33,415 nt of DNA from a virus (IMGVR_UViG_2563366922_000004); one strand, 5' to 3'. Positions 1 to 17,380 are shown, numbered from the stretch's first letter. Made by a program: numbers and translations. Notes: a model not told the origin generated them from the sequence alone.

Positions 1-3152
<3,152 letters not shown>

Positions 3153-3172
<20 letters not shown>

Positions 3173-4472
3173 TCTCCCGCATATTGCCAGTATGGCCTTT
3201 AATGAGCCGCTGATGCTTGAACCCGCCTATGCGCGGGTTTTCTTTTGTGCGCTTGCAGGCCAGCTTGGGATCAGCCGCCTGACGGATGCGGTATCCGGCG
3301 ACAGCCTGACTGCCGGAGAGGCACCCGCGGCGCTGGCGTTATCCGTTGATGATGACGGACCACGACAGGCCCGCAGTTATCAGGTCATGAACGGCATCGC
3401 CGTGCTGCCGGTGTCCGGCACGCTGGTCAGTCGGACGCGAGCGCTGCAGCCGTATTCGGGGATGACCGGTTACAACGGCATTATCGCCCGTCTGCAACAG
3501 GCTGCCAGCGACCCGATGGTGGACGGCATTCTGCTCGATATGGATACGCCAGGCGGGATGGTGGCAGGGGCATTTGACTGCGCTGACATCATCGCCCGTG
3601 TGCGTGACATAAAGCCGGTATGGGCGCTGGCCAACGACATGAACTGCAGTGCAGGTCAGTTGCTTGCCAGTGCCGCCTCCCGGCGTCTGGTCACGCAGAC
3701 CGCCCGGACAGGCTCCATCGGCGTCATGATGGCTCACAGTAATTACGGTGCTGCGCTGGAGAAACAGGGTGTGGAAATCACGCTGATTTACAGCGGCAGC
3801 CATAAGGTGGATGGCAACCCCTACAGCCATCTTCCGGATGACGTCCGGGAGACACTGCAGTCCCGGATGGACGCAACCCGCCGGATGTTTGCACAGAAGG
3901 TGTCGGCATATACCGGCCTGTCCGTGCAGGCTGTGCTGGATACCGAGGCTGCAGTGTACAGCGGTCAGGAGGCCATTGATGCCGGACTGGCTGATGAACT
4001 TGTTAACAGTACCGATGCGATCACCGTCATGCGTGATGCACTGGATGCACGTAAATCCCGTCTCTCAGGAGGGCGAATGACCAAAGAGACTCAATCAACA
4101 ACTGTTTCAGCCACTGCTTCGCAGGCTGACGTTACTGAGGTGGTGCAAGCGACGGAGGGCGAGAACGCCAGCGCGGCGCAGCCGGACGTGAACGCGCAGA
4201 TCACCGCAGCGGTTGCGGCAGAAAACAGCCGCATTATGGGGATCCTCAACTGTGAGGAGGCTCACGGACGCGAAGAACAGGCACGCGTGCTGGCAGAAAC
4301 CCCCGGTATGACCGTGAAAACGGCCCGCCGCATTCTGGCCGCAGCACCACAGAGTGCACAGGCGCGCAGTGACACTGCGCTGGATCGTCTGATGCAGGGG
4401 GCACCGGCACCGCTGGCTGCAGGTAACCCGGCATCTGATGCCGTTAACGATTTGCTGAACACACCAGTGTAA
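3153..4472 (+). CDS. C: Head maturation protease / minor capsid protein C (439 aa), GTG start
   Basis: ORF track opens at 3039, but lambda C begins MTAELRNLPHIASMAFNEPLMLEP, which corresponds to the in-frame GTG at 3153; length from 3153 is 439 aa as in lambda; overlaps end of B. Confidence 0.88.
3867..4472 (+). CDS. Nu3: Scaffolding protein Nu3, in-frame internal start within the 3' part of C (201 aa)
   Basis: In lambda, Nu3 is the last 606 nt of C in the same frame; there is an in-frame ATG exactly 606 nt before the C stop (MDATRRMFAQKV...). Confidence 0.6.
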   Translation: MDATRRMFAQKVSAYTGLSVQAVLDTEAAVYSGQEAIDAGLADELVNSTDAITVMRDALDARKSRLSGGRMTKETQSTTVSATASQADVTEVVQATEGENASAAQPDVNAQITAAVAAENSRIMGILNCEEAHGREEQARVLAETPGMTVKTARRILAAAPQSAQARSDTALDRLMQGAPAPLAAGNPASDAVNDLLNTPV

Positions 4473-4481
4473 GGGATGTTT

Positions 4482-4814
4482 ATGACGAGCAAAGAAACCT
4501 TTACCCATTACCAGCCGCAGGGCAACAGTGACCCGGCTCATACCGCAACCGCGCCCGGCGGATTGAGTGCGAAAGCGCCTGCAATGACCCCGCTGATGCT
4601 GGACACCTCCAGCCGTAAGCTGGTTGCGTGGGATGGCACCACCGACGGTGCTGCCGTTGGCATTCTTGCGGTTGCTGCTGACCAGACCAGCACCACGCTG
4701 ACGTTCTACAAGTCCGGCACGTTCCGTTATGAGGATGTGCTCTGGCCGGAGGCTGCCAGCGACGAGACGAAAAAACGGACCGCGTTTGCCGGAACGGCAA
4801 TCAGCATCGTTTAA
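4482..4814 (+). CDS. D: Head decoration protein D (110 aa)
   Basis: [27 protein letters not shown]...AISIV matches lambda gpD; ORF track start at 4476 includes 2 extra codons, ATG at 4482 matches lambda. Confidence 0.92.
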
Positions 4815-4834
4815 CTTTACCCTTCATCACTAAA

Positions 4835-4856
4835 GGCCGCCTGTGCGGCTTTTTTT
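4835..4856 (+). terminator. Short GC hairpin (GGCCGC-ctgt-GCGGC) followed by T7 run between D and E
   Basis: Sequence aaaGGCCGCctgtGCGGCttttttt read directly; lies in the D-E intergenic spacer. Confidence 0.4.
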
Positions 4857-4869
4857 ACGGGATTTTTTT

Positions 4870-5145
4870 ATGTCGATGTACACAACCGCCCAACTGCTGG
4901 CGGCAAATGAGCAGAAATTTAAGTTTGATCCGCTGTTTCTGCGTCTCTTTTTCCGTGAGAGCTATCCCTTCACCACGGAGAAAGTCTATCTCTCACAAAT
5001 TCCGGGACTGGTAAACATGGCGCTGTACGTTTCGCCGATTGTTTCCGGTGAGGTTATCCGTTCCCGTGGCGGCTCCACCTCTGAATTTACGCCGGGATAT
5101 GTCAAACCCAAGCACTTAGCATGGCTTTCTGAGGCTTTCGTGTAG
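4870..5145 (+). pseudogene. E: Major capsid protein E, 5' fragment: 82 native codons then 9 insert-derived codons (LAWLSEAFV) and stop
   Basis: MSMYTTAQLLAANEQKFKFDPLFLRLFFRESYPFTTEKVYLSQIPGLVNMALYVSPIVSGEVIRSRGGSTSEFTPGYVKPKH matches lambda E residues 1-82; similarity ends abruptly at 5115/5116. Confidence 0.9.
5107..5115 (+). repeat. Left att core copy CCCAAGCAC (attL side)
   Basis: Matches the right copy CCGAAGCAT at 16152-16160 in 7 of 9 positions; both lie exactly where lambda-E homology ends and resumes. Confidence 0.6.
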
Positions 5146-5227
5146 TTGCTGGTTTTTACACTTAATCTTTTGATAATAAAGAATAAGTTTATCTGGCGCT
5201 TTCACTGAATTTTCCTCGTTATCTGTG

Positions 5228-5263
5228 TGTTGCAATCATCTCTGTATTGCAGCTTGTATTGCT
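5228..5263 (+). promoter_or_regulatory. Cluster of TGT(A/T)TTGCA direct repeats upstream of int; candidate integrase arm-type sites
   Basis: tgttgcaa (5228-5235), tgtattgca (5243-5251), tgtattgct (5255-5263); the same TGTATTGCA motif recurs twice near the other end at 16043-16063. Confidence 0.4.
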
Positions 5264-5277
5264 TTTTGGGGCTAAAA

Positions 5278-6513
5278 ATGGCTGGCGAGAACAAACTGAG
5301 CGACAAAGCGCTTAAAGGATATCTGGGGAAACCCAGAGAAAAGCAGATCACCATTGCTGATGGAAAGGGGCTTTCTATTCGTGTGAGTACTAAAGGGGCT
5401 GTGAGCTTTGTTTTCTTCTACAGGTTAGCAGGTGGCCGGGCTGCTCCGGTCTGGCTAACGTTGGGTAAATATCCTGATATGTCACTCAAACAGGCAAGGG
5501 AAAAGCGCGACGAGTGCCGTGGTTGGTTGGCTGACAAACGTGATCCGCGTATCCAGATTAAGATTCAGGCTGAAGAACGCTTAAAGCCGGTCACAGTGGA
5601 GGATGCACTAAATTACTGGTATGAAAATTACTGTAAGGTGCGTCGTAAAACTCATGCTGTAACGCTTGGCAGATTTCGAAAGCATATCTTTCCCTATATC
5701 GGTCATTTGCCCGTAAATGACACTCACCTATATGAATGGCTGGACTGTTTTGACCGAATTAAACGTAATGCACCAGTTATGGCGGCGTATGTTTTTTCTG
5801 ACACTAAATTAGCTCTTCGTTTTTGTCGGGTACGCCAGTACGCGACGTGTGATGCTTTAAAGGATTTGCGCATGAGTGATGTGGGGCAGATTGCAGGTAA
5901 GCGGGATCGGGTTCTGGATGAAGCCGAACTCGGCCAGCTCTGGAAGGCAATTTTTGTCGAGCCTGATTTAAAACTAATGTCTGAATACACGCGAAAAATG
6001 TTTGTGCTTTGTACAGTATTTGGATGTCGAATGAGTGAAGCCCGATTATCAGAATGGAGCGAATGGGATCTCGAAAGTTGGGTTTGGACTGTACCAAAAG
6101 ATCACTCAAAAACTGGTGTTGAAATCGTCAGACCAGTACCTGAAATTCTACGACAGTGGGTAACGGATGTTCACGAAGAGACAAAACATACTGGTTATGT
6201 GCTGGGAAGTCTGCGAATTAGAGAAAGCGTAAGCAAGATTGGGGGGAAAATCGGTAAACGTTTGGGCCATGAAAAACAATGGTCACTACACGACCTTAGA
6301 AGAACGCTATCTACTCATCTAAGTGATCTCGGTGTTGAATTTTATGTAGTAGAACAACTGTTAGGCCATGCGCTACCTGGCGTGGCAGGTGTTTACAATC
6401 GGAGTAAGTTTATGGCTAAAAAACTGGATGCTCTGGAACTCTGGACTACATATCTCAATAGCATCGCAGGTGCTGATTCAAAAGTGACAATCCTCAAACA
6501 AAAGGCTGGTTAA
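5278..6513 (+). CDS. int: Tyrosine recombinase / integrase (P4-like), probable ATG start at 5278
   Basis: N-terminal arm-binding-like region (GKYPDMSLKQAREKRDE) and C-terminal catalytic motifs (HDLRRT, LLGH, GVYNRS); ORF track opens at GTG 5227 but the homologous N-terminus begins MAGENKLSDKAL. Confidence 0.88.
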   Translation: MAGENKLSDKALKGYLGKPREKQITIADGKGLSIRVSTKGAVSFVFFYRLAGGRAAPVWLTLGKYPDMSLKQAREKRDECRGWLADKRDPRIQIKIQAEERLKPVTVEDALNYWYENYCKVRRKTHAVTLGRFRKHIFPYIGHLPVNDTHLYEWLDCFDRIKRNAPVMAAYVFSDTKLALRFCRVRQYATCDALKDLRMSDVGQIAGKRDRVLDEAELGQLWKAIFVEPDLKLMSEYTRKMFVLCTVFGCRMSEARLSEWSEWDLESWVWTVPKDHSKTGVEIVRPVPEILRQWVTDVHEETKHTGYVLGSLRIRESVSKIGGKIGKRLGHEKQWSLHDLRRTLSTHLSDLGVEFYVVEQLLGHALPGVAGVYNRSKFMAKKLDALELWTTYLNSIAGADSKVTILKQKAG

Positions 6514-6514
6514 C

Positions 6515-6742
6515 ATGAAAAAAATGGCAATTGTTGATAAAAAGGGTCTGGAGTACATTCCTAACATTGATCGTATGATCCGTGAGAAAGAATGTCGGGA
6601 GCTAACCACTCTTGCGAACAGCACACGCTGGAAGCTGGAGAAGGAAGGAAAATTTCCTAAGCGGATCAAGATTGGCGCTACTGCGGTAGCTTACCGTCTC
6701 TCCGAAGTTCAGGCATGGATTAGGGGGGAATGGCGGACATAA
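6515..6742 (+). CDS. alpA: AlpA-family HTH transcriptional regulator / excisionase-like protein (75 aa)
   Basis: Small protein directly after int with an AlpA-like helix-turn-helix region (ATAVAYRLSEVQAWIRGE); typical int-alpA pair of P4-like elements and PICIs. Confidence 0.8.
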   Translation: MKKMAIVDKKGLEYIPNIDRMIREKECRELTTLANSTRWKLEKEGKFPKRIKIGATAVAYRLSEVQAWIRGEWRT

Positions 6743-6778
6743 ATGTTGTAGTAAATTGTTATATAAAAGGGTGTAAGC

Positions 6779-7654
6779 ATGGCTACTCGAAAAAAAAATA
6801 GCGTAGAAATGAAAACTGTTTGTGAACTAATCATATCAAGAGATGATATGAAAGATAAAATTCAAGACAGAATTCAAAAAGGATTATTACTCCTACAGAA
6901 AAGCATAAATAACAATAGTGACTTGGAGCTGTTTAATGCTGATTACAGGAAATGGAGTGATTTTAATGCTGAGCTACTGAAGCGTAGTTTCACAAATGAT
7001 GATTTCAAAGAAGAATATGAAGGTGGGGCATTTGGTGTTATTTCATTGTACGAGACTTCCTTGGGAGAAAAAATCAGTGAGGCTACGCGTAAACTCCAGA
7101 GTAAGATAAGAAAACTAGAGTCGATTATGGAGCGACTGGAGTTAATTCCTATATCTTCCAAAGTTGTTGAAGAAAATATTGAAGTACCTCAGAGTTCAGC
7201 GGTAAAAACCAAAAAGGTATTCATTGTTCATGGAAGAGATGAAATATCAAAAACCAACTTAGAAGTGTTTTTAAGAGAAATTGGCTTAGAACCTATTGTT
7301 CTCCATAGGCAAGCTGATGTAGGTCAGACAGTGATTGAGAAATTTGAAGCAAATAGTGATGTTGGTTTCGCATTCATTCTTCTCACACCTGATGAGATCG
7401 CTTATTTATTGCCGCAAGACTCTTTACCTGATAATGAAAGAGAAAAGGAGTTACGTGCACGACCAAATGTAATGTTTGAATTTGGTTATTTCGTAGGGAA
7501 ATTAGGTCGTTCTAAGGTTTGTTGTCTATACACAGGTGATGTAGTGATTCCAAGTGATTTGAATGGTCTTATTTATAAAAAATTCAATTCTTCTATTGAA
7601 GAAGTAGCATATAGCATTATTAAAGACTTGCGAGCTACTGGTTACGCAGTTTAG
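6779..7654 (+). CDS. Two-domain protein: N-terminal coiled-coil-like region plus C-terminal TIR-like domain; candidate defence effector
   Basis: C-terminal half has the motifs I recall for bacterial TIR-like (COG4271-type) proteins: VFIVHGRD...LLTPDE...RARPNVMFEFGYFVGKLGR; the gene and its flanks are strongly AT-rich compared with neighbours. Confidence 0.55.
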   Translation: MATRKKNSVEMKTVCELIISRDDMKDKIQDRIQKGLLLLQKSINNNSDLELFNADYRKWSDFNAELLKRSFTNDDFKEEYEGGAFGVISLYETSLGEKISEATRKLQSKIRKLESIMERLELIPISSKVVEENIEVPQSSAVKTKKVFIVHGRDEISKTNLEVFLREIGLEPIVLHRQADVGQTVIEKFEANSDVGFAFILLTPDEIAYLLPQDSLPDNEREKELRARPNVMFEFGYFVGKLGRSKVCCLYTGDVVIPSDLNGLIYKKFNSSIEEVAYSIIKDLRATGYAV

Positions 7655-7683
7655 TAAATTCTTTGAACTAAAAATCTGCATAG

Positions 7684-7716
7684 ATATAGAGCCATTCGAG
7701 ATAAATGGCTCTATAT
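7684..7716. terminator. Perfect 13 bp inverted repeat with 7 nt loop between convergent genes; likely bidirectional terminator
   Basis: ATATAGAGCCATT-cgagata-AATGGCTCTATAT read directly; sits between the stop of 6779-7654 (+) and the stop of 7730-7909 (-). Confidence 0.5.
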
Positions 7717-7729
7717 GAAATATTATCTG

Positions 7730-7909
7730 TTAAATTTTGACTTCATATCCGCGTTGCTGTAGTTCTTTGCGAATAATCCTTTTAATCCAGGCTGCTAAAG
7801 ATTCGTCTCCATCTACTTGCTGTGCTTGCTCCATCAACTCCCTCAACTCAGGATCTAACCGAAACTGGAACGGAGGATTACCACGTCTTTGATTTTTGTG
7901 TGTTGACAC
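7730..7909 (-). CDS. Small Arc/MetJ-type ribbon-helix-helix DNA-binding protein (59 aa, GTG start); not in the ORF track
   Basis: Manual minus-strand translation gives (V)STHKNQRRGNPPFQFRLDPELRELMEQAQQVDGDESLAAWIKRIIRKELQQRGYEVKI, with a beta-strand then two helices as in Arc; start codon overlaps palindromes. Confidence 0.5.
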   Translation of the reverse strand: MSTHKNQRRGNPPFQFRLDPELRELMEQAQQVDGDESLAAWIKRIIRKELQQRGYEVKI

Positions 7910-7957
7910 GTCAATTACACCCGATGTAATGTGTTAATGTGTGATGACACATTACAT
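7903..7957. promoter_or_regulatory. Divergent control region: palindrome TTGAC-AC-GTCAA (7903-7914) and 10 bp inverted repeat ATGTAATGTG / CACATTACAT (7924-7933 / 7948-7957); candidate operator and promoter
   Basis: Inverted repeats read directly; TTGACA at 7903-7908 is a plausible -35 for the rightward operon; located between the RHH gene (-) and the 8040 operon (+). Confidence 0.35.
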
Positions 7958-8039
7958 ACGTGTTTAGGAAAATGCAACGCCTCGACGTGCGGGAACACCA
8001 TCGAGGCGTCTAACCAACCCGTTAAATGAGGTAACGATT

Positions 8040-8405
8040 ATGGCTGGAACACAGCATACCCAAACTCACCCTAAATTTATATACACCTTTCTGGCACTAC
8101 ACCACGACCGCATGGCAGATGGAGCAACTACGGTACATGTAGCCGCTGACACGCTGGTTGATGCCCGCAAGATGGTTAAGGAGATGGGCTATACTGCGGC
8201 TTTCTGGAAAGGGCGTGAAGAAAACACGCTGTTTATTCAGAAATGCGAAAACAATTTCATCTGGCGTTTTATCGCCCTGAGCACCGCACAACCGCGCGTG
8301 ATTCACATCGTGGCCACCAGCGAACAGGAAGCACGCCAGCAATCCCCGGCTGGCTGCGTGATGGTATTCGCCGCCCGTATTCGTCAGGGGGTATGCCATG
8401 CCTGA
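8040..8405 (+). CDS. Hypothetical protein; C-terminal part resembles Icd-like (cell-division-inhibitor-like) small proteins of P4-like elements
   Basis: C-terminal segment FIWRFIALSTAQPRVIHIVATSEQEARQQ...VFAARIRQG resembles the Icd-like pattern from memory; GAGG Shine-Dalgarno about 9 nt upstream of ATG 8040; first gene of a + operon. Confidence 0.45.
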   Translation: MAGTQHTQTHPKFIYTFLALHHDRMADGATTVHVAADTLVDARKMVKEMGYTAAFWKGREENTLFIQKCENNFIWRFIALSTAQPRVIHIVATSEQEARQQSPAGCVMVFAARIRQGVCHA

Positions 8406-8718
8406 TATGTCAAATTACCAGTACCTGATTAATCCGCATTTTAACTGTGAGCATGATATTGCTAAAAAGGTTTATTCCGCTGCGGATGGGGCTACTGACA
8501 ATATATCAATGGCTGTTGCGTCAATTGGTAGCCTGATGTGGCATGCGTCAGAAAATGAGGACTATGACGAAAAGGCTATGCGCATTGATATGGGTAATAT
8601 CGGTTTGTTACTGGCAATGCTTGGGCAGTTTGATATTTCGTTACGGTGCACCATTGAAAATGCCACAGATGCATTAAATGCCATAAAGAAAGCGAATACT
8701 GATTCAAATCGGGGATAA
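8398..8718 (+). CDS. Hypothetical protein (106 aa)
   Basis: ORF with ATGCCTGA start/stop overlap with the upstream gene (translational coupling); no recognisable family. Confidence 0.45.
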   Translation: MPDMSNYQYLINPHFNCEHDIAKKVYSAADGATDNISMAVASIGSLMWHASENEDYDEKAMRIDMGNIGLLLAMLGQFDISLRCTIENATDALNAIKKANTDSNRG

Positions 8719-8724
8719 ATAATC

Positions 8725-9024
8725 ATGAGAACATATTTATCTGGCTTGACTGCCAGCGGTTATGCACACCCCAAAATTATCCCCGGCGCTATTTATCTGG
8801 ATAAGAACGGTAACAGAGTAACGGTAAAAGAACTGATGTTTGACCGTGTGTATTTTATTCGTGATGGCTATTCATTTCATAGTTCGCTGAACGTGGAGAT
8901 CTTTATTAGCAGATTCAGGCGGGAAATCCCGCTTTCCAGAAATAACCATGTGTCATGTATGGATGTTGATAAAAAACTACAGGAACTGAAAAACATGATT
9001 GCCGCGTGGAGAGAGCAGAAATGA
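8725..9024 (+). CDS. Hypothetical protein (99 aa)
   Basis: ORF in operon context immediately upstream of the primase gene; no recognisable family. Confidence 0.45.
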   Translation: MRTYLSGLTASGYAHPKIIPGAIYLDKNGNRVTVKELMFDRVYFIRDGYSFHSSLNVEIFISRFRREIPLSRNNHVSCMDVDKKLQELKNMIAAWREQK

Positions 9025-10838
9025 AAAAAGCGCCAAATTTAAAACACCAGCCGCGTGACAAAATGACGGAAGTCATCATTTTTGCGGGTAGTGATGCGTG
9101 GGCACATGCGAAACAGTGGCAGGAACAGGACGGGCGACTGGCTGGCGATAACGTGCCACCTGTCTGGCTTGGAGAGCAACAACTTGCCGAACTGGACAAC
9201 CTGCAAATCGTACCGGACGGACGCTATCGCGTGCGTCTCTATCAGGCGGGGTTATTGCGTCCGGGGCTTGTTAATACCATCGGGCAGAAACTGGCAGTGG
9301 CAGGTGTCAGGGATGCTGATTATTACCCTGAAGGAATGCACAGCCAGAAACGGGAGAACTGGCGCGAATATCTGGAACGTGAACGGGCAGAGCAGGCGGA
9401 AAAGAAAAAGGTAGTTGAACTGCCTGTAAAGAAAAAAGAGCGGGTAAAAGACGATAACGCTTCATCACTGGCGCTTAACCAGATGGGAGCAAGTCAACGC
9501 GGCGAAGTTCTCCTGGCACATTATGGCGGTGAACTGGCGATTCATGCTGACTCTGACACTGTTCACCATTACAACGGCGTTGTATGGGAGCCAGTACAGG
9601 ATAAAGAATTACAGCGAGCTATGGCACAGATTTTCATTGATGCGGAGATCAGCTATTCGCAGAACGCCATTAAATCGGCGGTCGATACCATGAAGTTAAG
9701 TTTGCCTGTAATGGGGAATACAGCCCGTAACCTGATTGGATTCAGTAACGGGGTATTTGATACCAGAACAGGTAATTTTCGGGAGCATAACAAAAACGAC
9801 TGGTTGTTAATTGCCAGTGAATTACCTTTCAGCCCACCAGCAGAGGGGGAAACGCTGGCAACACATGCGCCGAATTTCTGGAAGTGGTTACGCCGTTCGG
9901 TGGCTGAGAATGACCGCAAGGCGGATCGCGTACTGGCTGCATTATTCATGGTGCTGGCGAACCGGTACGACTGGCAGTTATTCATTGAGGTAACAGGTCC
10001 AGGGGGAAGTGGTAAAAGCGTGATGGCGGAGATTTGCACCATGCTGGCGGGTAAGGCCAACACAGTATCGGCAAGCATGAAGGCGCTGGAAGATGCAAGG
10101 GAACGCGCGTTAGTGGTTGGCTTTTCGCTGATTATCATGCCGGATATGACCCGCTACGCTGGTGATGGGGCAGGGATTAAGGCTATTACAGGCGGTGACA
10201 AGGTGGCAATTGACCCGAAACACAAAGCCCCCTACTCAACGCGTATTCCGGCAGTAGTGCTGGCGGTTAACAATAACGCCATGTCATTCAGTGACCGCAG
10301 CGGGGGGATCTCACGTCGTCGGGTGATATTCAATTTTTCGGAAGTTGTACCGGAGAACGAACGCGATCCAATGCTGGCGGAAAAAATAGAAGGTGAGTTG
10401 GCGGTAGTGATTCGCCATCTGCTTACACGGTTTGCTGACCAGGACGAAGCCAGACGCCTGTTATATGAGCAGCAGAAATCTGAAGAAGCACTGGCGATAA
10501 AGCGAGAGGGGGATTCGCTGGTGGACTTCTGCGGCTATCTCATGGCGTCGGTAATGTGTGATGGCCTGTTAGTGGGTAATGCTGAAATTGTGCCATTCAG
10601 CCCACGCAGGTATCTCTATCATGCCTATCTGGCTTATATGAGGGCACATGGGTTTGGTAAACCTGTAACACTGACGCGCTTCGGTAAAGATATGCCGGGG
10701 GCAATGGCGGAATATGGCAGGGAGTATATGAAACGGAAAACGAAGCACGGTTTGCGTTCAAACGTGACACTGACGGAGGAATCAGAAGACTGGATGCCAT
10801 CATGTGTATCGGTCACTAATGACGATAGCAAAAATTAA
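9006..10838 (+). CDS. Replication protein: primase / SF3-type helicase (P4-family), start 9006 or 9021
   Basis: Walker A motif VTGPGGSGKS and Walker B-like SLIIMPD; 610 aa; immediately followed by an iteron array. Confidence 0.82.
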   Translation: MERAEMKKAPNLKHQPRDKMTEVIIFAGSDAWAHAKQWQEQDGRLAGDNVPPVWLGEQQLAELDNLQIVPDGRYRVRLYQAGLLRPGLVNTIGQKLAVAGVRDADYYPEGMHSQKRENWREYLERERAEQAEKKKVVELPVKKKERVKDDNASSLALNQMGASQRGEVLLAHYGGELAIHADSDTVHHYNGVVWEPVQDKELQRAMAQIFIDAEISYSQNAIKSAVDTMKLSLPVMGNTARNLIGFSNGVFDTRTGNFREHNKNDWLLIASELPFSPPAEGETLATHAPNFWKWLRRSVAENDRKADRVLAALFMVLANRYDWQLFIEVTGPGGSGKSVMAEICTMLAGKANTVSASMKALEDARERALVVGFSLIIMPDMTRYAGDGAGIKAITGGDKVAIDPKHKAPYSTRIPAVVLAVNNNAMSFSDRSGGISRRRVIFNFSEVVPENERDPMLAEKIEGELAVVIRHLLTRFADQDEARRLLYEQQKSEEALAIKREGDSLVDFCGYLMASVMCDGLLVGNAEIVPFSPRRYLYHAYLAYMRAHGFGKPVTLTRFGKDMPGAMAEYGREYMKRKTKHGLRSNVTLTEESEDWMPSCVSVTNDDSKN

Positions 10839-10850
10839 ACTTATGGAATA

Positions 10851-11075
10851 ACTGTTCACCACTGTTCACCCTGTCATAAATATCTTTTATATCAGTATAT
10901 TATAGGGTGAACAGTTATTTATGAACTGTTCACCAAACTATTCACTGTTCACCTTTTTGATTGTTTATTGAGCTTCAAGGGTGAACAGTGGTGAACAGTT
11001 GGTGAATAGTTTTTGTGAAACTGTTCACCCCTTAACATTATGAATTAAAAGAGAAAATATCAAAAGGTGAACAGG
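10851..11075. repeat. Iteron-type replication origin: about 10 copies of CTGTTCACC / GGTGAACAG in both orientations with an AT-rich centre
   Basis: Copies read directly at about 10852, 10862, 10906, 10926, 10945, 10979, 10990, 11000 (variant GGTGAATAG), 11021 and 11066; directly downstream of the primase gene. Confidence 0.7.
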
Positions 11076-11125
11076 TGAAGGGTTAAAACGCAAAAATTTT
11101 AATTTACTGCTGTGAGATAAAGCCT

Positions 11126-11371
11126 ATGACAGCGAAGCACACAAAAAAATCACAATCGCACGCCCTTGATTTGACGGAACACTGGTTAAGGGTGTCGATA
11201 AAAATCATTGACCGCAACGCCGGGGAAGGATATGCGAAAGCACATCCCGAACTGATTAGCGCATTCATGACAACGGCAGCTGCAAACTTTGCCACGCTGA
11301 CAGAACGGGAGATTGCCGAAGCGGAACAGGTGACAACCATCAACGTTAAAACCGGAGAGCAGACAGCATGA
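11126..11371 (+). CDS. Hypothetical protein (81 aa)
   Basis: ORF whose stop overlaps the start of the downstream SSB-like gene (ATGA); no recognisable family. Confidence 0.35.
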   Translation: MTAKHTKKSQSHALDLTEHWLRVSIKIIDRNAGEGYAKAHPELISAFMTTAAANFATLTEREIAEAEQVTTINVKTGEQTA

Positions 11372-11790
11372 CAGCACAGATAGCGGCTTACGGACGGCTG
11401 GTGGCTGACCCGCAGTTAAAGACCACCAGCAAGGGTACACAAATGACGATGGCGAGTATGGCGGTCCCCCTTCCGTGCAGCCAGGCAGATGACGGAACGG
11501 CGCCGATGTGGTTATCCGTCCTGGCGTTTGGCAGACAGGCCGACGCACTGGCAAAACACCACAAAGGCGAACTGGTGAGCGTGGCGGGTAACATGCAGGT
11601 AAGCCAGTGGACAGGCCAGAACGGCGAAACGCGGCAGGGCTGGCAGGTTATCGCAGACAGTGTAATCAGTGCCAGAACGGCGCGACCGGGCGGCAAAAAA
11701 GGTCAACAGGGCCAGGCTACTGACGCACTGAACAGGGCAAAACAACAGTCGGGGAATGATGATCCGTACGGCGATAATATACCGTTTTAA
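11368..11790 (+). CDS. ssb: Single-stranded DNA-binding protein (SSB-like, 140 aa)
   Basis: OB-fold-like N-terminal region and acidic C-terminal tail ending DDPYGDNIPF, resembling the E. coli SSB tail DFDDDIPF. Confidence 0.65.
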   Translation: MTAQIAAYGRLVADPQLKTTSKGTQMTMASMAVPLPCSQADDGTAPMWLSVLAFGRQADALAKHHKGELVSVAGNMQVSQWTGQNGETRQGWQVIADSVISARTARPGGKKGQQGQATDALNRAKQQSGNDDPYGDNIPF

Positions 11791-11807
11791 ATTCTGCAAA
11801 TAAAAAA

Positions 11808-11836
11808 ATGCCGGAAGAAAATAGATTTTCCGGCAT
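11808..11836. other. 9 bp stem hairpin (ATGCCGGAA...TTCCGGCAT) preceded by an A7 run; possible terminator after ssb
   Basis: Inverted repeat read directly. Confidence 0.3.
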
Positions 11837-12001
11837 GCTACATAAATCCCGACCAAAGGAAGTAAATACATTAACACGAATTATCAGCACTGAAGTTGTC
11901 ACGGCATATTTTATACAACATTGCACTTGGTTGCATGTATTCGCATAGCAGACATCGGTAATAGAATATATTCACAATTATTTGTAATGAATGTAAAGAG
12001 G

Positions 12002-13048
12002 ATGAGTATGGTTGATTTATATTCGCCTACACAGCTTGTGCAGGTGGCTAATGCTGAAGATGTGCAAAAAAAATTAAATGCGTTGTTTACCAGTTTGTTT
12101 TTCACTCGCTCGGTAATGTTTGAATCGAGAGACATTATTCTTGATACGATCGACGATCCAAATATCCCGATCGCGGCGTTTTGCTCTCCTATGGTGGGCA
12201 GTAAAGTTTCACGAGATGAGGGATACGAATCAAAAACAATTCGCCCTGGCTATATGAAACCGAAAAGCAGCATTGATCCAAATAAGTTAGCTGTGCGCCC
12301 TGCTGGTGTGTCACCTGAGCAATACAATGCTTTTGGGGCGCGTAATATTAAAGTTAAACAGGCGATTGTAAATCAGGCTAAAGCTATTCGTACACGTATT
12401 GAATGGCTTGCTGTTCAGGCAATCACAACGGGGAAAAATATCATTGAGGGCGATGGTATTGAACGTTATGAGCTGGACTGGAATATAAAACCACAAAATA
12501 TCATCACTCAGTCTGGCGGTACTGAGTGGTCAGGTAAGGATAAAGAAACTTTTGATCCAAATGATGATATTGAGAGCTACGCAGAATTTAGTGAGGGCGT
12601 CACTAATATCATCATTATGGGCGGTAATGTATGGAAGAAATACCGTTCATTCAGAGCGATAAAAGAGGCTCTGGATACCCGTCGTGGTTCTAATTCCGAA
12701 CTGGAAACGGCCCTTAAAGACCTTGGTGATTCGGTGAGTTTTAAAGGGTATATGGGCGATGTTGCGATTGTTGTTTACAGCGGGCGTTATACCGACGAGG
12801 ACGGAACTGAAAAACATTTCCTTGATCCTGATTTGATGGTGCTTGGCAATACGGCTCTTCAGGGGATTGTCGCTTATGGCGGTATTCAGGATCCGGAGCT
12901 AATCCGGATGGGGCTGACTAAAGCCGAACTTGCACCGAAAAACTATATTGTGCCTGGTGATCCGGCTATTGAATATGTGCAGACACATTCAGCACCACAG
13001 CCAATACCGGCCCGTATCAATCGTTTTGTTACCGTTCGCATTGGCTAA
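12002..13048 (+). CDS. Insert-encoded major capsid protein, diverged homolog of lambda gpE (about 349 aa)
   Basis: MSMVDLYSPTQLVQVANAEDV... aligns along its length with lambda E (shared motifs ITQSGGTEWS, LDTRRGSNSELETA, GDVAIVVYSG) but is clearly diverged; start chosen by analogy with lambda E (MSM...), ORF track opens at 11921. Confidence 0.85.
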   Translation: MSMVDLYSPTQLVQVANAEDVQKKLNALFTSLFFTRSVMFESRDIILDTIDDPNIPIAAFCSPMVGSKVSRDEGYESKTIRPGYMKPKSSIDPNKLAVRPAGVSPEQYNAFGARNIKVKQAIVNQAKAIRTRIEWLAVQAITTGKNIIEGDGIERYELDWNIKPQNIITQSGGTEWSGKDKETFDPNDDIESYAEFSEGVTNIIIMGGNVWKKYRSFRAIKEALDTRRGSNSELETALKDLGDSVSFKGYMGDVAIVVYSGRYTDEDGTEKHFLDPDLMVLGNTALQGIVAYGGIQDPELIRMGLTKAELAPKNYIVPGDPAIEYVQTHSAPQPIPARINRFVTVRIG

Positions 13049-13058
13049 GGGGGGAGCA

Positions 13059-13400
13059 ATGGCTACTCATTACACTGAACTCATGGCTGGCACTGAAGCA
13101 CTGGTTACTACGCTGGGGATATTTTCAGCTAATAAAGGGGTAATTCCTGCATTTACGCCACTGATGCAGGAAGATACAACAGGTGCACTGGTGGTATGGG
13201 ATGGTACGAGTGCAGGTAAAGCTGTTTATGTTTCCGCTGTACAACTCGATACAGCGAAAAAAACACAGGCTCAGGTCTATAAGACAGGTGTCTTAAATGT
13301 TGATGCTCTTAACTGGCCTGAGTCAGTAAAAGAACTGTCAGTAAAGGTTGCAGCGTTTGTTGGCTCAGGTATTTCTGTTCAGCCGCTGGCTCGTGTGTAA
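13059..13400 (+). CDS. Insert-encoded head decoration protein, diverged homolog of lambda gpD (113 aa)
   Basis: MATHYTELMAGTEALVTT...ALVVWDGTSAGKAV...YKTGVLN parallels lambda D ([13 protein letters not shown]...YKSGTF); start ATG 13059 preceded by GGGGAG. Confidence 0.78.
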   Translation: MATHYTELMAGTEALVTTLGIFSANKGVIPAFTPLMQEDTTGALVVWDGTSAGKAVYVSAVQLDTAKKTQAQVYKTGVLNVDALNWPESVKELSVKVAAFVGSGISVQPLARV

Positions 13401-13411
13401 AGGGGGATACA

Positions 13412-13795
13412 ATGCAGAATCATTACAATGACCTTAAGCCAATTGCCGAAATGATGTATCCGGATCCAGCAGTAGAGGAATTAAAGGCTATTGCTGACAA
13501 AATGCGTTTAAGCGAGCGTCTTGTTGATATGAATCAGGTGATGGAACTTACAACCCTGAGTCGTCGTACACTGCTAAACCTTGAAGCACGTGGAGAGTTC
13601 CCCGAACGCGTGCAGGTTACGGAAGGGCGTAAGGCCTGGTATTTAAGCGAAGTGATCGACTGGATAAACAATATTCCGCGCGCTTCTGAATATTGCCGCG
13701 TACCTGTCCCAAAAAAGCCAGATGCGGCGCTATGCCTCAAGATTGATCGTGTACGCCGCAATGCACGGGATGGTCGCTATAAGCTGATTGGTTGA
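13412..13795 (+). CDS. HTH protein (AlpA/MerR-like winged helix region), immediately upstream of cos; possible packaging accessory or late regulator
   Basis: Central segment MELTTLSRRTLLNLEARGEFPERVQVTEGRKAWYLSEVIDWINN resembles AlpA-type HTH; function not assignable from sequence. Confidence 0.45.
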   Translation: MQNHYNDLKPIAEMMYPDPAVEELKAIADKMRLSERLVDMNQVMELTTLSRRTLLNLEARGEFPERVQVTEGRKAWYLSEVIDWINNIPRASEYCRVPVPKKPDAALCLKIDRVRRNARDGRYKLIG

Positions 13796-13839
13796 TGAAA
13801 TTAGGGCCCGTTCTGGCTGGCGGGTCCTTTCCGGCGATC

Positions 13840-13890
13840 CGGCAGGTTACGGGGCGTCAGGCGCGCGGGTTTTCGCTATTTATGAGCATT
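13840..13890. promoter_or_regulatory. cos site of the insert (cosN-like): GTTACG-GGGCGTCAGGCG-CGCGGGTTTTCGCTATTTATGA
   Basis: Flanking bases match my recollection of lambda cosN (GTTACG / CGCGGGTTTTCGCTATTTATGA) while the 12 nt between them (13852-13863) differs from lambda's GGGCGGCGACCT; lies just upstream of a Nu1-like gene, as in lambda. Confidence 0.6.
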
Positions 13891-14011
13891 TTAAGGGGAC
13901 TGGTGGTGGTTTTGTTGTTCGCTATATCTGTATGAATAATAAGAGAAAAATACAATCAATACACCAACCTGAAACAGTAATTAAGTTGTGGTATCAATGA
14001 AATTACACCTG

Positions 14012-14539
14012 ATGAACAAAAAAAACATGGCAAAAAGTTGCCGTGTAAGCGCCACTGCGTTCGATAAGTGGGGAGTGATTCCCGTCGAGCGTAAGGGCCG
14101 TGAGGCGTTCTATGATGTTGCCAGTGTAATAGATAATCGGGTTAACAATGCAATCAGCCAGATTACAAACGAAACGGGCGATATTGATGACGATGAACTT
14201 TTACGCGTCAGGATCAGATTACTGACAGCACAGGCAGAGGCGCAGGAGCTTAAAAACGAGCGCGAACGCGGCGACGTTATTGATACAGAGTTTTGTATGT
14301 ATGTTCTTTCCAAACTGGCGAGTCAGATTTCATCTATCATGGACAGCCTGCCGCTTACCATGCAAAGGCGCTTCCCACAGATGACTCCGGCTATGCTGGA
14401 TGGACTTAAAAAGGAAGTGGCTAAAGCCTGTAATGCCAGTGCCGGCGTTGCTGACAACCTCCCACAGATACTGGCTGATTATCTGATGGAAAGTACAGGA
14501 AACGTACCGGATAAGTTGCAGCTGAATAAGGATAAGTAA
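14012..14539 (+). CDS. Terminase small subunit, Nu1-like, with divergent N-terminal DNA-binding region (start 14012, or 13997/14027)
   Basis: C-terminal two-thirds parallels lambda Nu1 (RLLTAQAEAQELKN...TEFCMYVLSKLASQISSIMDSLPLTMQRRFP vs lambda RLTRAQADAQELKN...TAFCTFVLSRIAGEIASILDGLPLSVQRRFP); N-terminus differs. Confidence 0.78.
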   Translation: MNKKNMAKSCRVSATAFDKWGVIPVERKGREAFYDVASVIDNRVNNAISQITNETGDIDDDELLRVRIRLLTAQAEAQELKNERERGDVIDTEFCMYVLSKLASQISSIMDSLPLTMQRRFPQMTPAMLDGLKKEVAKACNASAGVADNLPQILADYLMESTGNVPDKLQLNKDK

Positions 14540-14550
14540 CGTAGTACGCT

Positions 14551-14826
14551 ATGACTGAATCCGAACTACTGAAAGTAATCTGCCATGCTGGTGGAGTCAG
14601 CCACCAGCATGACGAACAGACCACGCAGCCGGGCAGTGTCACCGCTGAAAATTACGCTCGTGTGGTTGCTGAGGTTATGTGGCGTGACGGTATAGAACTG
14701 AACGGACAGGATTGCTTAGTCATCCGCACCAAAGTGCTGGCTATACTGGCAGCTAGGCGGAGGCAGGGACAACGCCAGAACGTTGCATCGTACCAGTGGA
14801 AGAAGCCTGACAGACTGCGGCGATAA
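14551..14826 (+). CDS. Hypothetical protein (91 aa)
   Basis: ORF directly downstream of the small terminase gene; no recognisable family. Confidence 0.4.
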   Translation: MTESELLKVICHAGGVSHQHDEQTTQPGSVTAENYARVVAEVMWRDGIELNGQDCLVIRTKVLAILAARRRQGQRQNVASYQWKKPDRLRR

Positions 14827-15122
14827 CTCTTTGATTTTCTCGACGGCCCCAAAATGGGCCTTACCATAGCCAGCTAATAAATGAGCAAGCCTCAAAAGTG
14901 AGGTTTGTGGCCGTTTGGCCTATTCATATGCTAACTCGTTGATATTCCTGACGACGCAAATTTACGCCTTGTGGCTGGTAGTCGAATTGCAAATTTGCAA
15001 CTCAACTATGAAACTACAGGTAGTTTGGGTAGTAAAAGCAACACACTGATTTTGGGGCTTCTTCGCGATACCTAATATTATGGTATCGGTGGAAGAGATA
15101 TCGTTTCTCATAGGTTAGCACC

Positions 15123-15142
15123 GAGGGCGGAGTTCCGCCCTC
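15123..15142. other. Perfect inverted repeat GAGGGCGGA-gt-TCCGCCCTC in the ORF-free spacer downstream of the HEPN gene
   Basis: Read directly; no clear U-run on either strand, so terminator function is uncertain. Confidence 0.3.
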
Positions 15143-15228
15143 ATCGAAAAATTGCTTACGAGTCGTCAAAATAAATTAATCGACTGAGTATAATGATTAA
15201 CTAATTGCTCGTGTTACTTCATTATACG

Positions 15229-15990
15229 TTATTTCCCATCTTTAAGGTTTAACCAAGTGTTAATTAAAAAAAGAGCCATTGAGCCTGATAAATTTACTGC
15301 AAGTTCGGCATGCCTTGGGGATGGCTTAATTGATGAGCTGTTCGTTCCATGTGCATCACCGAGTTTATTACGAAGAGTACCTAACCCATTTACAACTGCA
15401 GAACAACCGCCGAGAATTTGTTTGAAGATATTTTCAGTATGTTGGTCGGCAGATAGGTTAAGTTCTTTTGAAAGAGTTTTATAAAGCTCTGACATTTCAA
15501 TATTTTTATTATTATACTGAATGCCCATATCATCAAGAATGTGTTTGCAAACTGTTTCAAGAAGTGTTCTTGCGGAGGTTATCGCACCATCCGGATCTGT
15601 ATGGCGCCGTTCAAGTGCTTTTATCCAAACGGCGTGGACTCCATCCTCGTTAAACTTTCTTAATACATCAGATATGTCTTCATCCGCTGGAGCTTTATTT
15701 TTCCCTTCTAGATAGTCCAGCATCGGCTGAAATGCCTTATAAATCAAATCTCTCCGGGGGGCATACTTTTCAGTCTTTTTTATAAATCCCCAAAATTCTT
15801 TTAGTGAGCGATTAGTTCTCACAAACTCTGGTAATAGCTGATGTAAAGGAGGATTTTGTAAGAAATATGTTCTTAGAAGCAAATAATCATTATTAGCTTC
15901 ATCCTGGGCTCCTGTAGCTCTTGCAATTAGTATGTTTTGAAGCGCTACTGCGCGCTCTAGGTCATTTTGAAGGGTATCTATAATATTCAT
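15229..15990 (-). CDS. HEPN-domain protein of the Abi_C (abortive infection C-terminal) type, 253 aa
   Basis: Contains R-x6-H motif in LRNKLGDAHG preceded by ...ITSARTLLETVCKHILDDMGIQY...LYKTLSKELNL...ENIFKQILGGCSAVVNGLGT, matching my recollection of Abi_C; only minus-strand gene in the insert besides the RHH; AT-rich. Confidence 0.65.
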   Translation of the reverse strand: MNIIDTLQNDLERAVALQNILIARATGAQDEANNDYLLLRTYFLQNPPLHQLLPEFVRTNRSLKEFWGFIKKTEKYAPRRDLIYKAFQPMLDYLEGKNKAPADEDISDVLRKFNEDGVHAVWIKALERRHTDPDGAITSARTLLETVCKHILDDMGIQYNNKNIEMSELYKTLSKELNLSADQHTENIFKQILGGCSAVVNGLGTLRNKLGDAHGTNSSSIKPSPRHAELAVNLSGSMALFLINTWLNLKDGK

Positions 15991-16042
15991 AACAAATCTT
16001 TATTCACTTCATTTGTGGGTTGATAATTGAATGGTTTGTACA

Positions 16043-16063
16043 TTGATTTCTGTGTATTGCAGT
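16043..16063 (+). promoter_or_regulatory. Two TGTATTGCA direct repeats near the right end; candidate integrase arm-type sites
   Basis: Same 9-mer as at 5243-5263 near the left end; 12 bp spacing. Confidence 0.4.
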
Positions 16064-16151
16064 GTGTATTGCAACATAGCCATTCAGGTAGAGATTATGC
16101 TCTATTTTTCCTCTTATATCATTCACATACTTACACCATTGACTCATGTAG

Positions 16152-16160
16152 CCGAAGCAT
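16152..16160 (+). repeat. Right att core copy CCGAAGCAT (attR side; E codons P-K-H)
   Basis: Direct repeat partner of 5107-5115; immediately followed by E codon 83 (gaa gtg aat = EVN). Confidence 0.6.
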
Positions 16161-16940
16161 GAAGTGAATCCGCAGATGACCCTGCGTCGCCTGCCGGATG
16201 AAGAACCGCAGAATCTGGCGGACCCGGCTTACCGCCGCCGTCGCATCATCATGCAGAACATGCGTGACGAAGAGCTGGCCATTGCTCAGGTCGAAGAGAT
16301 GCAGGCAGTTTCTGCCGTGCTTAAGGGCAAATACACCATGACCGGTGAAGCCTTCGATCCGGTTGAGGTGGATATGGGCCGCAGTGAGGAGAATAACATC
16401 ACGCAGTCCGGCGGCACGGAGTGGAGCAAGCGTGACAAGTCCACGTATGACCCGACCGACGATATCGAAGCCTACGCGCTGAACGCCAGCGGTGTGGTGA
16501 ATATCATCGTGTTCGATCCGAAAGGCTGGGCGCTGTTCCGTTCCTTCAAAGCCGTCAAGGAGAAGCTGGATACCCGTCGTGGCTCTAATTCCGAGCTGGA
16601 GACAGCGGTGAAAGACCTGGGCAAAGCGGTGTCCTATAAGGGGATGTATGGCGATGTGGCCATCGTCGTGTATTCCGGACAGTACGTGGAAAACGGCGTC
16701 AAAAAGAACTTCCTGCCGGACAACACGATGGTGCTGGGGAACACTCAGGCACGCGGTCTGCGCACCTATGGCTGCATTCAGGATGCGGACGCACAGCGCG
16801 AAGGCATTAACGCCTCTGCCCGTTACCCGAAAAACTGGGTGACCACCGGCGATCCGGCGCGTGAGTTCACCATGATTCAGTCAGCACCGCTGATGCTGCT
16901 GGCTGACCCTGATGAGTTCGTGTCCGTACAACTGGCGTAA
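16161..16940 (+). pseudogene. E: Major capsid protein E, 3' fragment (codons 83-341, beginning EVNPQMTLRRLPD...)
   Basis: Translation matches lambda E from residue 83 to the C-terminal ...FVSVQLA; 82 + 259 = 341 codons, the full length of lambda E. Confidence 0.9.
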
Positions 16941-16981
16941 TCATGGCCCTTCGGGGCCATTGTTTCTCTGTGGAGGAGTCC

Positions 16982-17380
16982 ATGACGAAAGATGAACTGA
17001 TTGCCCGTCTCCGCTCGCTGGGTGAACAACTGAACCGTGATGTCAGCCTGACGGGGACGAAAGAAGAACTGGCGCTCCGTGTGGCAGAGCTGAAAGAGGA
17101 GCTTGATGACACGGATGAAACTGCCGGTCAGGACACCCCTCTCAGCCGGGAAAATGTGCTGACCGGACATGAAAATGAGGTGGGATCAGCGCAGCCGGAT
17201 ACCGTGATTCTGGATACGTCTGAACTGGTCACGGTCGTGGCACTGGTGAAGCTGCATACTGATGCACTTCACGCCACGCGGGATGAACCTGTGGCATTTG
17301 TGCTGCCGGGAACGGCGTTTCGTGTCTCTGCCGGTGTGGCAGCCGAAATGACAGAGCGCGGCCTGGCCAGAATGCAATAA
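16982..17380 (+). CDS. FI: DNA packaging protein FI (132 aa)
   Basis: MTKDELIARLRSLGEQLNRDVSLTGTKEELALRVAELKEELDD... matches lambda FI; ATG at 16982 preceded by GGAGGAG. Confidence 0.9.
   Translation: MTKDELIARLRSLGEQLNRDVSLTGTKEELALRVAELKEELDDTDETAGQDTPLSRENVLTGHENEVGSAQPDTVILDTSELVTVVALVKLHTDALHATRDEPVAFVLPGTAFRVSAGVAAEMTERGLARMQ

Follow-up and report, generated by a model that had tools for sequence, protein, structure and literature searches.

The window, a 33,415-nt stretch of viral DNA (IMGVR_UViG_2563366922_000004), holds a satellite inserted in the capsid gene E of a lambda-like prophage, and this satellite carries a capsid gene (MCP) and a decoration gene (Dec) of its own. Judged by sequence, the MCP-Dec pair is a satellite-specific lineage of E and D homologues, and the element is a variant of the published 11capE with a complete small terminase (TerS) and other defence cargo. 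A satellite that interrupts the helper capsid gene yet carries its own has thus been described before, and we present no new kind of system. What deserves attention is that the pair is kept under strong constraint in hundreds of PICIs despite the absence of a laboratory phenotype; resolving its role would bear on whether satellites form a gradation from capsid-stealing to capsid-making kinds, and on how much of the lambda head is swappable between lineages. The module probably neither evolved to compensate for the disruption of E nor is a demonstrated size-redirection factor. The explanation that we favour, and to which we give an even chance, is that it supplies functional shell and cement proteins and thereby partial capsid autonomy or insurance for the satellite.

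The window comes from the late part of an E. coli prophage that is lambda-like and leads from the 3′ portion of A by way of W, B, C, D, E and FI to J and stf; between approximately 5.1 and 16.2 kb its GC content falls to about 38-50%, from about 57-60%. The edges of the insert could be resolved to a single base. It interrupts the helper E at codon 82, inside the conserved PGYVKPKH motif, and the att core is imperfect, reading CAAGCA in attL versus GAAGCA in attR. Joining 4870-5114 to 16160-16940 yields an intact lambda-type E of 341 aa, and at least six complete E. coli genomes contain an uninterrupted capsid gene that matches a 210-nt query spanning the rejoined junction with 100% identity; this confirms the proposal in the preliminary description that the insert disrupts the E gene of the helper. 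Over positions 4400-17000 the match to E. coli WP8-S17-ESBL-12 is 100%, and at least 80% of this region is present in 40 complete E. coli genomes. The RefSeq annotation of WP8-S17-ESBL-12 lists "major capsid protein" three times, once each for the N-terminal and C-terminal fragments and once for the intact gene that lies between them.

Table 1. Features of the helper late region and of the satellite, with positions counted in the window.
Feature	Position	Strand	Source or remark
Helper portal gene, lambda B-like, 533 aa, intact	1571..3172	+	ORF list, RefSeq annotation
Helper S49 protease/scaffold gene, lambda C/Nu3-like, intact	3153..4472	+	RefSeq annotation
Helper decoration gene D, 110 aa	4482..4814	+	
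Helper E N-terminal fragment, codons 1-82	4870..5114	+	attL core CAAGCA at 5109-5114
Helper-embedded PICI insert, 11capE type, 11,045 bp	5115..16159	+	
Tyrosine integrase	5278..6513	+	410/411 identical to NRG857c 11capE integrase
AlpA-family regulator adjoining int	6515..6742	+	
D5/P4-type primase-helicase	9021..10838	+	
GGTGAACAG-type repeats, probable replication origin	about 10841-11030		downstream of primase-helicase
Single-strand DNA-binding protein	11368..11790	+	
Satellite MCP, gpE family, 346 aa	12008..13048	+	Pfam, PHROG, RefSeq annotation
Satellite decoration protein Dec, gpD/SHP family, 113 aa	13059..13400	+	Pfam, PHROG, RefSeq annotation
Second AlpA-family protein, 127 aa	13412..13795	+	
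Satellite cos	13822..13900	+	lambda-like cosQ and flanks, altered 12-nt cosN core GGGCGTCAGGCG
Nu1-like small terminase, 180 aa	13997..14539	+	36% identical to helper Nu1
Conserved PICI protein, 91 aa	14551..14826	+	56% identical to EcCICFT073 homologue
Helper E C-terminal fragment, codons 83-341	16160..16940	+	attR core GAAGCA at 16154-16159

The insert contains 16 genes according to RefSeq annotation and Pfam/PHROG scans. They run in the order integrase, AlpA, a TIR protein, a small hypothetical protein, an Icd-like protein, a hypothetical protein, DUF4222, the D5-type primase, a further hypothetical protein, SSB, MCP, Dec, the second AlpA-like protein, the Nu1-like small terminase, the 91-aa protein and, on the minus strand, an AbiJ-like protein. 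This is the zone order of PICIs: integration (int, AlpA), accessory genes, replication (primase, SSB, ori) and a late zone. The TIR gene (PDC-S35) and the AbiJ-like gene are candidates for defence functions. Neither a portal gene nor a protease/scaffold or large terminase gene is found among the 16, and the non-coding gaps, all below 410 bp, are too small for such head genes. The preliminary description had stated both this absence and the consequent reliance on the portal, protease/scaffold and large terminase of the helper, and it was correct on both counts. The insert shares with cf-PICIs such as EcCIEDL933 the PICI backbone, an own MCP and TerS, and an MCP lineage apart from the phage homologues; however, cf-PICIs encode portal, protease, head-tail connectors and HNH/TerL, and as the insert has none of these defining genes we do not classify it as a cf-PICI. 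A P4-like class was set aside in an informal comparison, on the grounds of the lambdoid helper, the PICI organisation and the lack of annotated Sid, Psu or delta. The 127-aa AlpA-like protein was compared with the 137-aa protein that EcCICFT073 has in this place and shows no similarity to it. An Rfam scan of the insert returned zero matches, and a scan for promoter and terminator consensus sequences gave matches at or below shuffle expectation.

These features place the insert beside a known element, "11capE" of E. coli NRG857c, which excises from an induced composite prophage; 201 similar elements have been reported at the site E:Phage_cap_E:80, with precise excision demonstrated experimentally for NRG857c only (Tommasini, Mageeney & Williams, NAR Genom Bioinform 2023, PMC10111431; bioRxiv 10.1101/2022.07.18.500453). 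The window element agrees with HE-PICI Eco567.11capE in its integrase, in its MCP (341/346), in the site in E, the orientation and the altered cosN core, in a size of about 11 kb and in the gene order int-AlpA-primase-SSB-MCP-Dec-AlpA. Because it shows every defining trait of the group that can be assessed bioinformatically, we assign it to the HE-PICI E:Phage_cap_E:80 group. There are two differences: in the window element the Nu1-like TerS is complete and the cosB its own, whereas in 11capE Nu1 is a 64-aa stub and cosB is lambda-like, and the cargo of the window element consists of TIR PDC-S35 and the AbiJ-like gene, whereas that of NRG857c 11capE consists of HEPN and DUF262 genes. The view that combining disruption with replacement of a capsid gene is unusual therefore has to be given up, as the configuration is published for the 201 elements and the attL junction of the window element recurs in 173 of the 5426 complete E. 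coli genomes that we searched.

The MCP matches the Pfam family Phage_cap_E (PF03864) with E=5.6e-41 and 141.1 bits (cut-off 22.9) over 324 of the 329 profile positions, and the PHROG major head protein with 2.5e-88; Dec matches HDPD (PF02924) with E=1.9e-15 and 57.5 bits (cut-off 29.1), and the PHROG head decoration with 2.5e-26; such scores are well outside what chance would produce. The MCP is 42-43% identical to lambda-type E proteins (about 42% to the helper E) and Dec is 39% identical to the helper D. Both genes are intact and co-oriented, the MCP gene being preceded by a strong Shine-Dalgarno sequence (AGAGGA), and their order, MCP then Dec, is the reverse of the D then E order in the helper. 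The preliminary description had noted that the insert encodes a diverged but full-length E homologue together with a D homologue, reversed relative to lambda, and this holds. The pair is flanked by SSB and AlpA and does not lie in a portal-protease-D-E head operon of the phage kind. Structure prediction and comparison, which had been proposed as a check, gave an AF2 model of the MCP with pLDDT 80.7 and pTM 0.81 that aligns over its full length with the crystal structure PDB 3BQW (TM 0.91) and with lambda gpE (TM 0.85-0.88) and shows neither a deletion nor an added domain relative to gpE. As modelled, then, the MCP is a complete gpE-type subunit. The pair thus falls in the same Pfam families as lambda gpE and gpD (PDB 7VI9, 7VII, 1C5E) and SHP of phage 21 (1TD0), with a full-length fold, but differs from gpE/gpD in the low identity, in the gene order and in 18 clade-specific substitutions. 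The latter emerged from an alignment of satellite and phage MCPs, in which 85 columns are conserved in both clades and the 18 fixed differences concentrate in the spine helix (residues 123-144) and the C-terminal strand (324-332). Dec matches both SHP and gpD, yet its N-terminus is unlike that of gpD and it bears a C-terminal extension. In lambda, the N-terminal segment of gpD is the strand that staples gpD to the E-loop of gpE (PMC5701804).

To place the pair among its relatives, we compared it with phage and protein collections. Across 50,697 phage genomes, the MCP finds no record above 42% identity, whereas c1499 of EcCICFT073 reaches 55%. In a search of 5.8 billion proteins, full-length MCP homologues fall into two groups, at 50% identity or more and at 44% or less, and the few entries of intermediate identity are over-long or truncated. 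A distance (NJ) tree of 85 sequences, drawn without bootstrap support, likewise sets the satellite clade apart from the phage-E clade, with a chimera as its single exception. All 11 clade members inspected in context lie in int-AlpA-primase (or DUF927/RepA) elements and have MCP followed by Dec: the window element, NRG857c, CFT073, Nissle 1917 (tRNA-Pro), O157:H7 (beside phoQ), strain 190693 (cspD/clpS), Serratia and Lelliottia (both fis), and the prophage-embedded members of Salmonella, Edwardsiella and SCEC020022. Going by these gene neighbourhoods, PICIs of Enterobacterales carry MCP-Dec alongside AlpA, cos and TerS (or Rpp) irrespective of where they have integrated, and a capsid gene has been reported in 21 of 29 reference Gram-negative PICIs (PMC10111431).

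This distribution bears on an explanation put forward by Tommasini et al., in which the capsid gene was captured from the helper as a dedicated backup that provides shell protein while E is split. E is not expressible before excision, excision was seen only at 2 h post induction (PMC10111431), and the satellite genes point in the direction of late transcription, all of which would fit a backup. However, with only 42% identity to phage E, and with a GC content of 44% (GC3 39%) in the satellite MCP versus 56% (GC3 68%) in the helper E, the gene was not recently captured from this helper. Moreover, the relative in SCEC020022 has a different integrase and is inserted in the portal gene, leaving the helper D and E intact; it nevertheless carries the MCP (99.4% identical), Dec, AlpA and TerS, and it has no portal gene as backup. 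The Edwardsiella element follows the same pattern (portal-inserted, no own portal, helper D and E kept). Since the same module also occurs in chromosomal PICIs, disruption of E and replacement of the capsid gene are uncoupled and their meeting in the window is coincidental. The numbers agree with this: the MCP type (at least 84% nucleotide identity, at least 80% coverage) is present in 395 genomes, so that at most about 44% of them show the E junction (173 vs 395). We therefore regard a dedicated backup as distinctly unlikely; on the evidence of gene context, the capsid module belongs to PICIs generally and is older than, or independent of, the targeting of E.

Both genes show the signature of a retained function. 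Between the window and SCEC020022 alleles, the MCP has 21 synonymous and 2 nonsynonymous changes (dN/dS 0.026), and further informative comparisons range from 0.08 to 0.13 (MCP) and from 0.11 to 0.13 (Dec); as the helper E gives 0.15 at similar divergence, the satellite pair is at least equally constrained. Among proteins of at least 84% identity, full-length clusters hold about 2,300 members and truncated ones about 40, so that roughly 98% are full length, and the suspicion that the E-like gene might be a pseudogene in most relatives can be dismissed. These comparisons indicate that both genes are under strong purifying selection, i.e., that some function is kept, of a kind that selection data leave unspecified. 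The identities of the two proteins also move together (55% for MCP and about 54-55% for Dec between satellite subtypes, 42% and 39-43% to phage), and such divergence in step is expected of a cognate binding pair. That the genes are a decaying, now functionless remnant of a phage head module would accord with the absence of a phenotype in the single system tested (EcCICFT073), but it is contradicted by the dN/dS values of 0.03-0.13, by reading frames intact in about 98% of close relatives and in many genera, and by the conserved order and neighbourhood; we find it scarcely credible.

EcCICFT073 is the relative for which experiments exist. It encodes a capsid protein (c1499, the protein of crystal structure 3BQW) and a head decoration protein (c1500), deletion of either of which left transfer and interference with lambda unchanged, with no phenotype for c1499, and its packaged DNA was all phage-sized (Fillol-Salom et al., ISME J 2018, PMC6092414). 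When its post-ori genes were expressed singly, c1503 (RppA) alone inhibited lambda (PMC6739421). The window element resembles it in MCP clade, in the MCP-Dec order and its position after the replication module, in the identity of MCP (55%) and Dec (about 54-55%) and in a conserved downstream gene of 91-93 aa; it differs in that EcCICFT073 is chromosomal, beside phoQ, has RppA in place of TerS, and has capsid genes that are dispensable by experiment, with heads of phage size. We place the capsid module of the window element in this EcCICFT073-type PICI lineage.

These data weigh on the suggestion, made by analogy, that the MCP acts like Ccm of SaPIbov5, i.e., that alone or with helper gpE it would redirect assembly to small heads that hold one or two satellite genomes (11 kb) and exclude the 48-kb helper genome. 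Precedents are Ccm itself and PmCI172, where an MCP homologue is accompanied by small heads (PMC6092414). Like the window element, SaPIbov5 is a cos-packaged satellite with an HK97-fold homologue of the helper MCP; however, Ccm was shown to give small capsids and helper interference, has no decoration partner and belongs to a Gram-positive system, and the likeness in function is one of analogy alone. The clustering of the 18 fixed substitutions in the spine helix and C-terminal strand counts in favour of the suggestion, and an MCP with neither deletion nor extra domain relative to gpE counts against it. Scaled by volume from lambda, a T=3 head would be filled to about 81% by 11.0 kb, and a T=4 head to about 105% by two copies, but four copies (44.2 kb, 91% of the lambda genome length) suit a normal T=7 head equally well, so that genome-size arithmetic does not separate the three; the T=7 fit agrees with the phage-sized DNA of EcCICFT073. 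With that DNA, the unaffected capsid and decoration deletions and c1503 as the sole lambda inhibitor all standing against it, size redirection is improbable, to the same degree as a dedicated backup.

In the satellite, a cos lies directly upstream of the Nu1-like gene, with lambda-like cosQ and flanks; its cosN core reads GGGCGTCAGGCG, versus the lambda-type GGGCGGCGACCT of the helper in the same genome, and the altered core is common to the window element and NRG857c 11capE. It was recognised by reading the sequence and aligning it to the helper cos, an exact or near-exact search for the lambda cosN GGGCGGCGACCT with up to two mismatches having given no match. Downstream of cosN, the cosB region of the window element is diverged. 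The lambda-like cosB and 64-aa Nu1 stub of NRG857c explain the published statement that 11capE lacks terS. In lambda, the C-terminal half of Nu1 binds gpA, and it is in the C-terminal half that the identity between TerS and the helper Nu1 (36% overall) is concentrated. We had also considered the Nu1-like gene as an Rpp homologue, but it has no similarity to c1503 of EcCICFT073 and is a true Nu1/TerS homologue. Taken together, these features suggest that the satellite directs the helper large terminase to satellite DNA. An own TerS and an altered cosN also hint at exclusive packaging, a point in favour of size redirection.

From the intact frames, the fold and the selection on both genes we infer that MCP and Dec are functional structural proteins. 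The favoured explanation, of shell and cement proteins that give partial autonomy or insurance, would then work as follows. The tyrosine integrase has placed the element at codon 82 of the E gene of a lambda-like prophage. After induction, helper late transcription and/or AlpA would express the co-oriented satellite genes, and the MCP would assemble with the helper portal and protease/scaffold into lambda-type heads (compatibility being assumed), either alone or mixed with helper gpE once excision restores E. The cognate Dec would cement the expanded shell, and the satellite TerS would recruit the helper large terminase (gpA) to the satellite cos so that the heads are filled. In this way the satellite would have a private supply of shell protein, including while the helper E is still split. 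We count the lack of a phenotype in EcCICFT073 against a structural role, noting that this relative is 55% identical and has RppA instead of TerS.

Two other readings take the same constraint in different directions. In the first, the pair is an old, satellite-owned shell system: satellite-specific heads, possibly of smaller T number, would be built on the helper portal, scaffold and protease and filled exclusively by means of the own TerS, cosB and a non-complementary cosN, which would place such elements, as "half capsid-forming" ones, midway from classical PICIs to cf-PICIs, and the missing phenotype in EcCICFT073 would reflect laboratory redundancy. We think this unlikely. In the second, the proteins would be non-structural or antagonistic, i.e., poison subunits, decoys or triggers, linked for instance to the TIR (PDC-S35) and AbiJ-like defence genes. 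The presence of two defence candidates in the element is in keeping with such a role, capsid proteins are known triggers of some defence systems, and the absent transfer phenotype of EcCICFT073 would be compatible with it. However, of the EcCICFT073 genes expressed, c1503 was alone in inhibiting lambda (PMC6739421), the defence cargo varies among elements that are otherwise identical (HEPN/DUF262 in NRG857c) whereas MCP-Dec is constant, and the co-inheritance of a cement protein with a shell protein is hard to account for without assembly. An antagonistic role therefore seems very unlikely.

Some relatives show further arrangements of the module. The chimera that forms the exception in the tree is an in-frame fusion of E and satellite MCP on one metagenomic scaffold (P0042/L013); as its junction occurs in none of the 5426 complete genomes, it remains a single, unverified metagenome scaffold. 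In the Salmonella PICI, the MCP-Dec module lies within a P2-like tail gene cluster, and in the Lelliottia PICI a gpC-like protease has been added after Dec.

The satellite's cosQ and the flanks of its cos are lambda-like when compared with the corresponding sequences of the helper and of the founding 11capE of NRG857c. The 12-nt cosN core reads GGGCGTCAGGCG in the satellite and GGGCGGCGACCT in the helper; 6 of the 12 bases differ, and the cohesive ends of the two would be non-complementary. The altered core is common to the satellite and the NRG857c element. At cosB and the small terminase the two elements differ: the founding 11capE has a lambda-like cosB together with only a 64-aa stub of Nu1, whereas the satellite has neither, its diverged cosB region being accompanied by a complete Nu1-like small terminase. 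Elements having a common site and integrase thus have two different solutions for packaging recognition. Immediately after the small terminase lies a gene for a 91-aa protein, which is 56% identical to the product of an EcCICFT073 gene in the equivalent place after RppA (the protein that this chromosomal PICI uses instead of TerS). The other E. coli PICIs inspected have a gene of comparable length (about 93-94 aa) after TerS, and we regard the 91-aa protein as a candidate packaging accessory.

Satellite features in the window and the loci or matches used for comparison
Feature	Window position	Strand	Comparison or match
TIR protein	6779-7654	+	PADLOC candidate PDC-S35, 6.9e-67
Clustered GGTGAACAG/CTGTTCACC repeats, direct and inverted	10841-11030		
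Satellite cos	13822-13900		L012:1462-1720(-) (helper cos region); L011 (NRG857c locus)
Nu1-like small terminase, complete	13997-14539		L011:23279-23473
91-aa protein, basic C-terminus	14551-14826		
AbiJ-like Abi_C protein	15229-15990	-	

The capsid gene pair, MCP and Dec, was also found in other settings. HE-PICIs of E. coli SCEC020022 and Edwardsiella tarda both carry the pair and are inserted in the portal gene; neither encodes a portal homologue, and their helpers have D and E both intact. In Salmonella enterica, a PICI-like element (L008:4292-13978; int, DUF4222, AAA_25 helicase, gpE-like MCP, Dec and AlpA) sits among the clustered tail genes of a P2-like myovirus prophage; P2-like phages are known to build their capsids from a protein of a different family. 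A Lelliottia sp. PICI at fis, apparently intermediate between the classical and the capsid-forming kinds, has a 447-aa S49 peptidase (gpC-like protease/scaffold; L010:11409-12752) after MCP-Dec, and a Phage_HCP gene.

A metagenome scaffold encodes an in-frame chimera of lambda-type E and the satellite MCP (P0042, L013:2801-3829), flanked by helper D upstream and satellite Dec downstream. Its N-terminal 230 or so residues are lambda-type E, its C-terminal 110 or so match the satellite MCP at 100% identity, and the switch falls in a 14-nt stretch common to the two, CTGGATACCCGTCG. Since this junction was not found among 5426 complete E. coli genomes, the chimera could reflect either an uncommon recombination event or a misassembly.

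The TIR and AbiJ-like Abi_C proteins of the satellite are cargo of defence type; in NRG857c 11capE, the corresponding right-hand position is instead occupied by HEPN and DUF262 genes. The clustered repeats lie directly downstream of the primase gene, the same position as mapped PICI replication origins.
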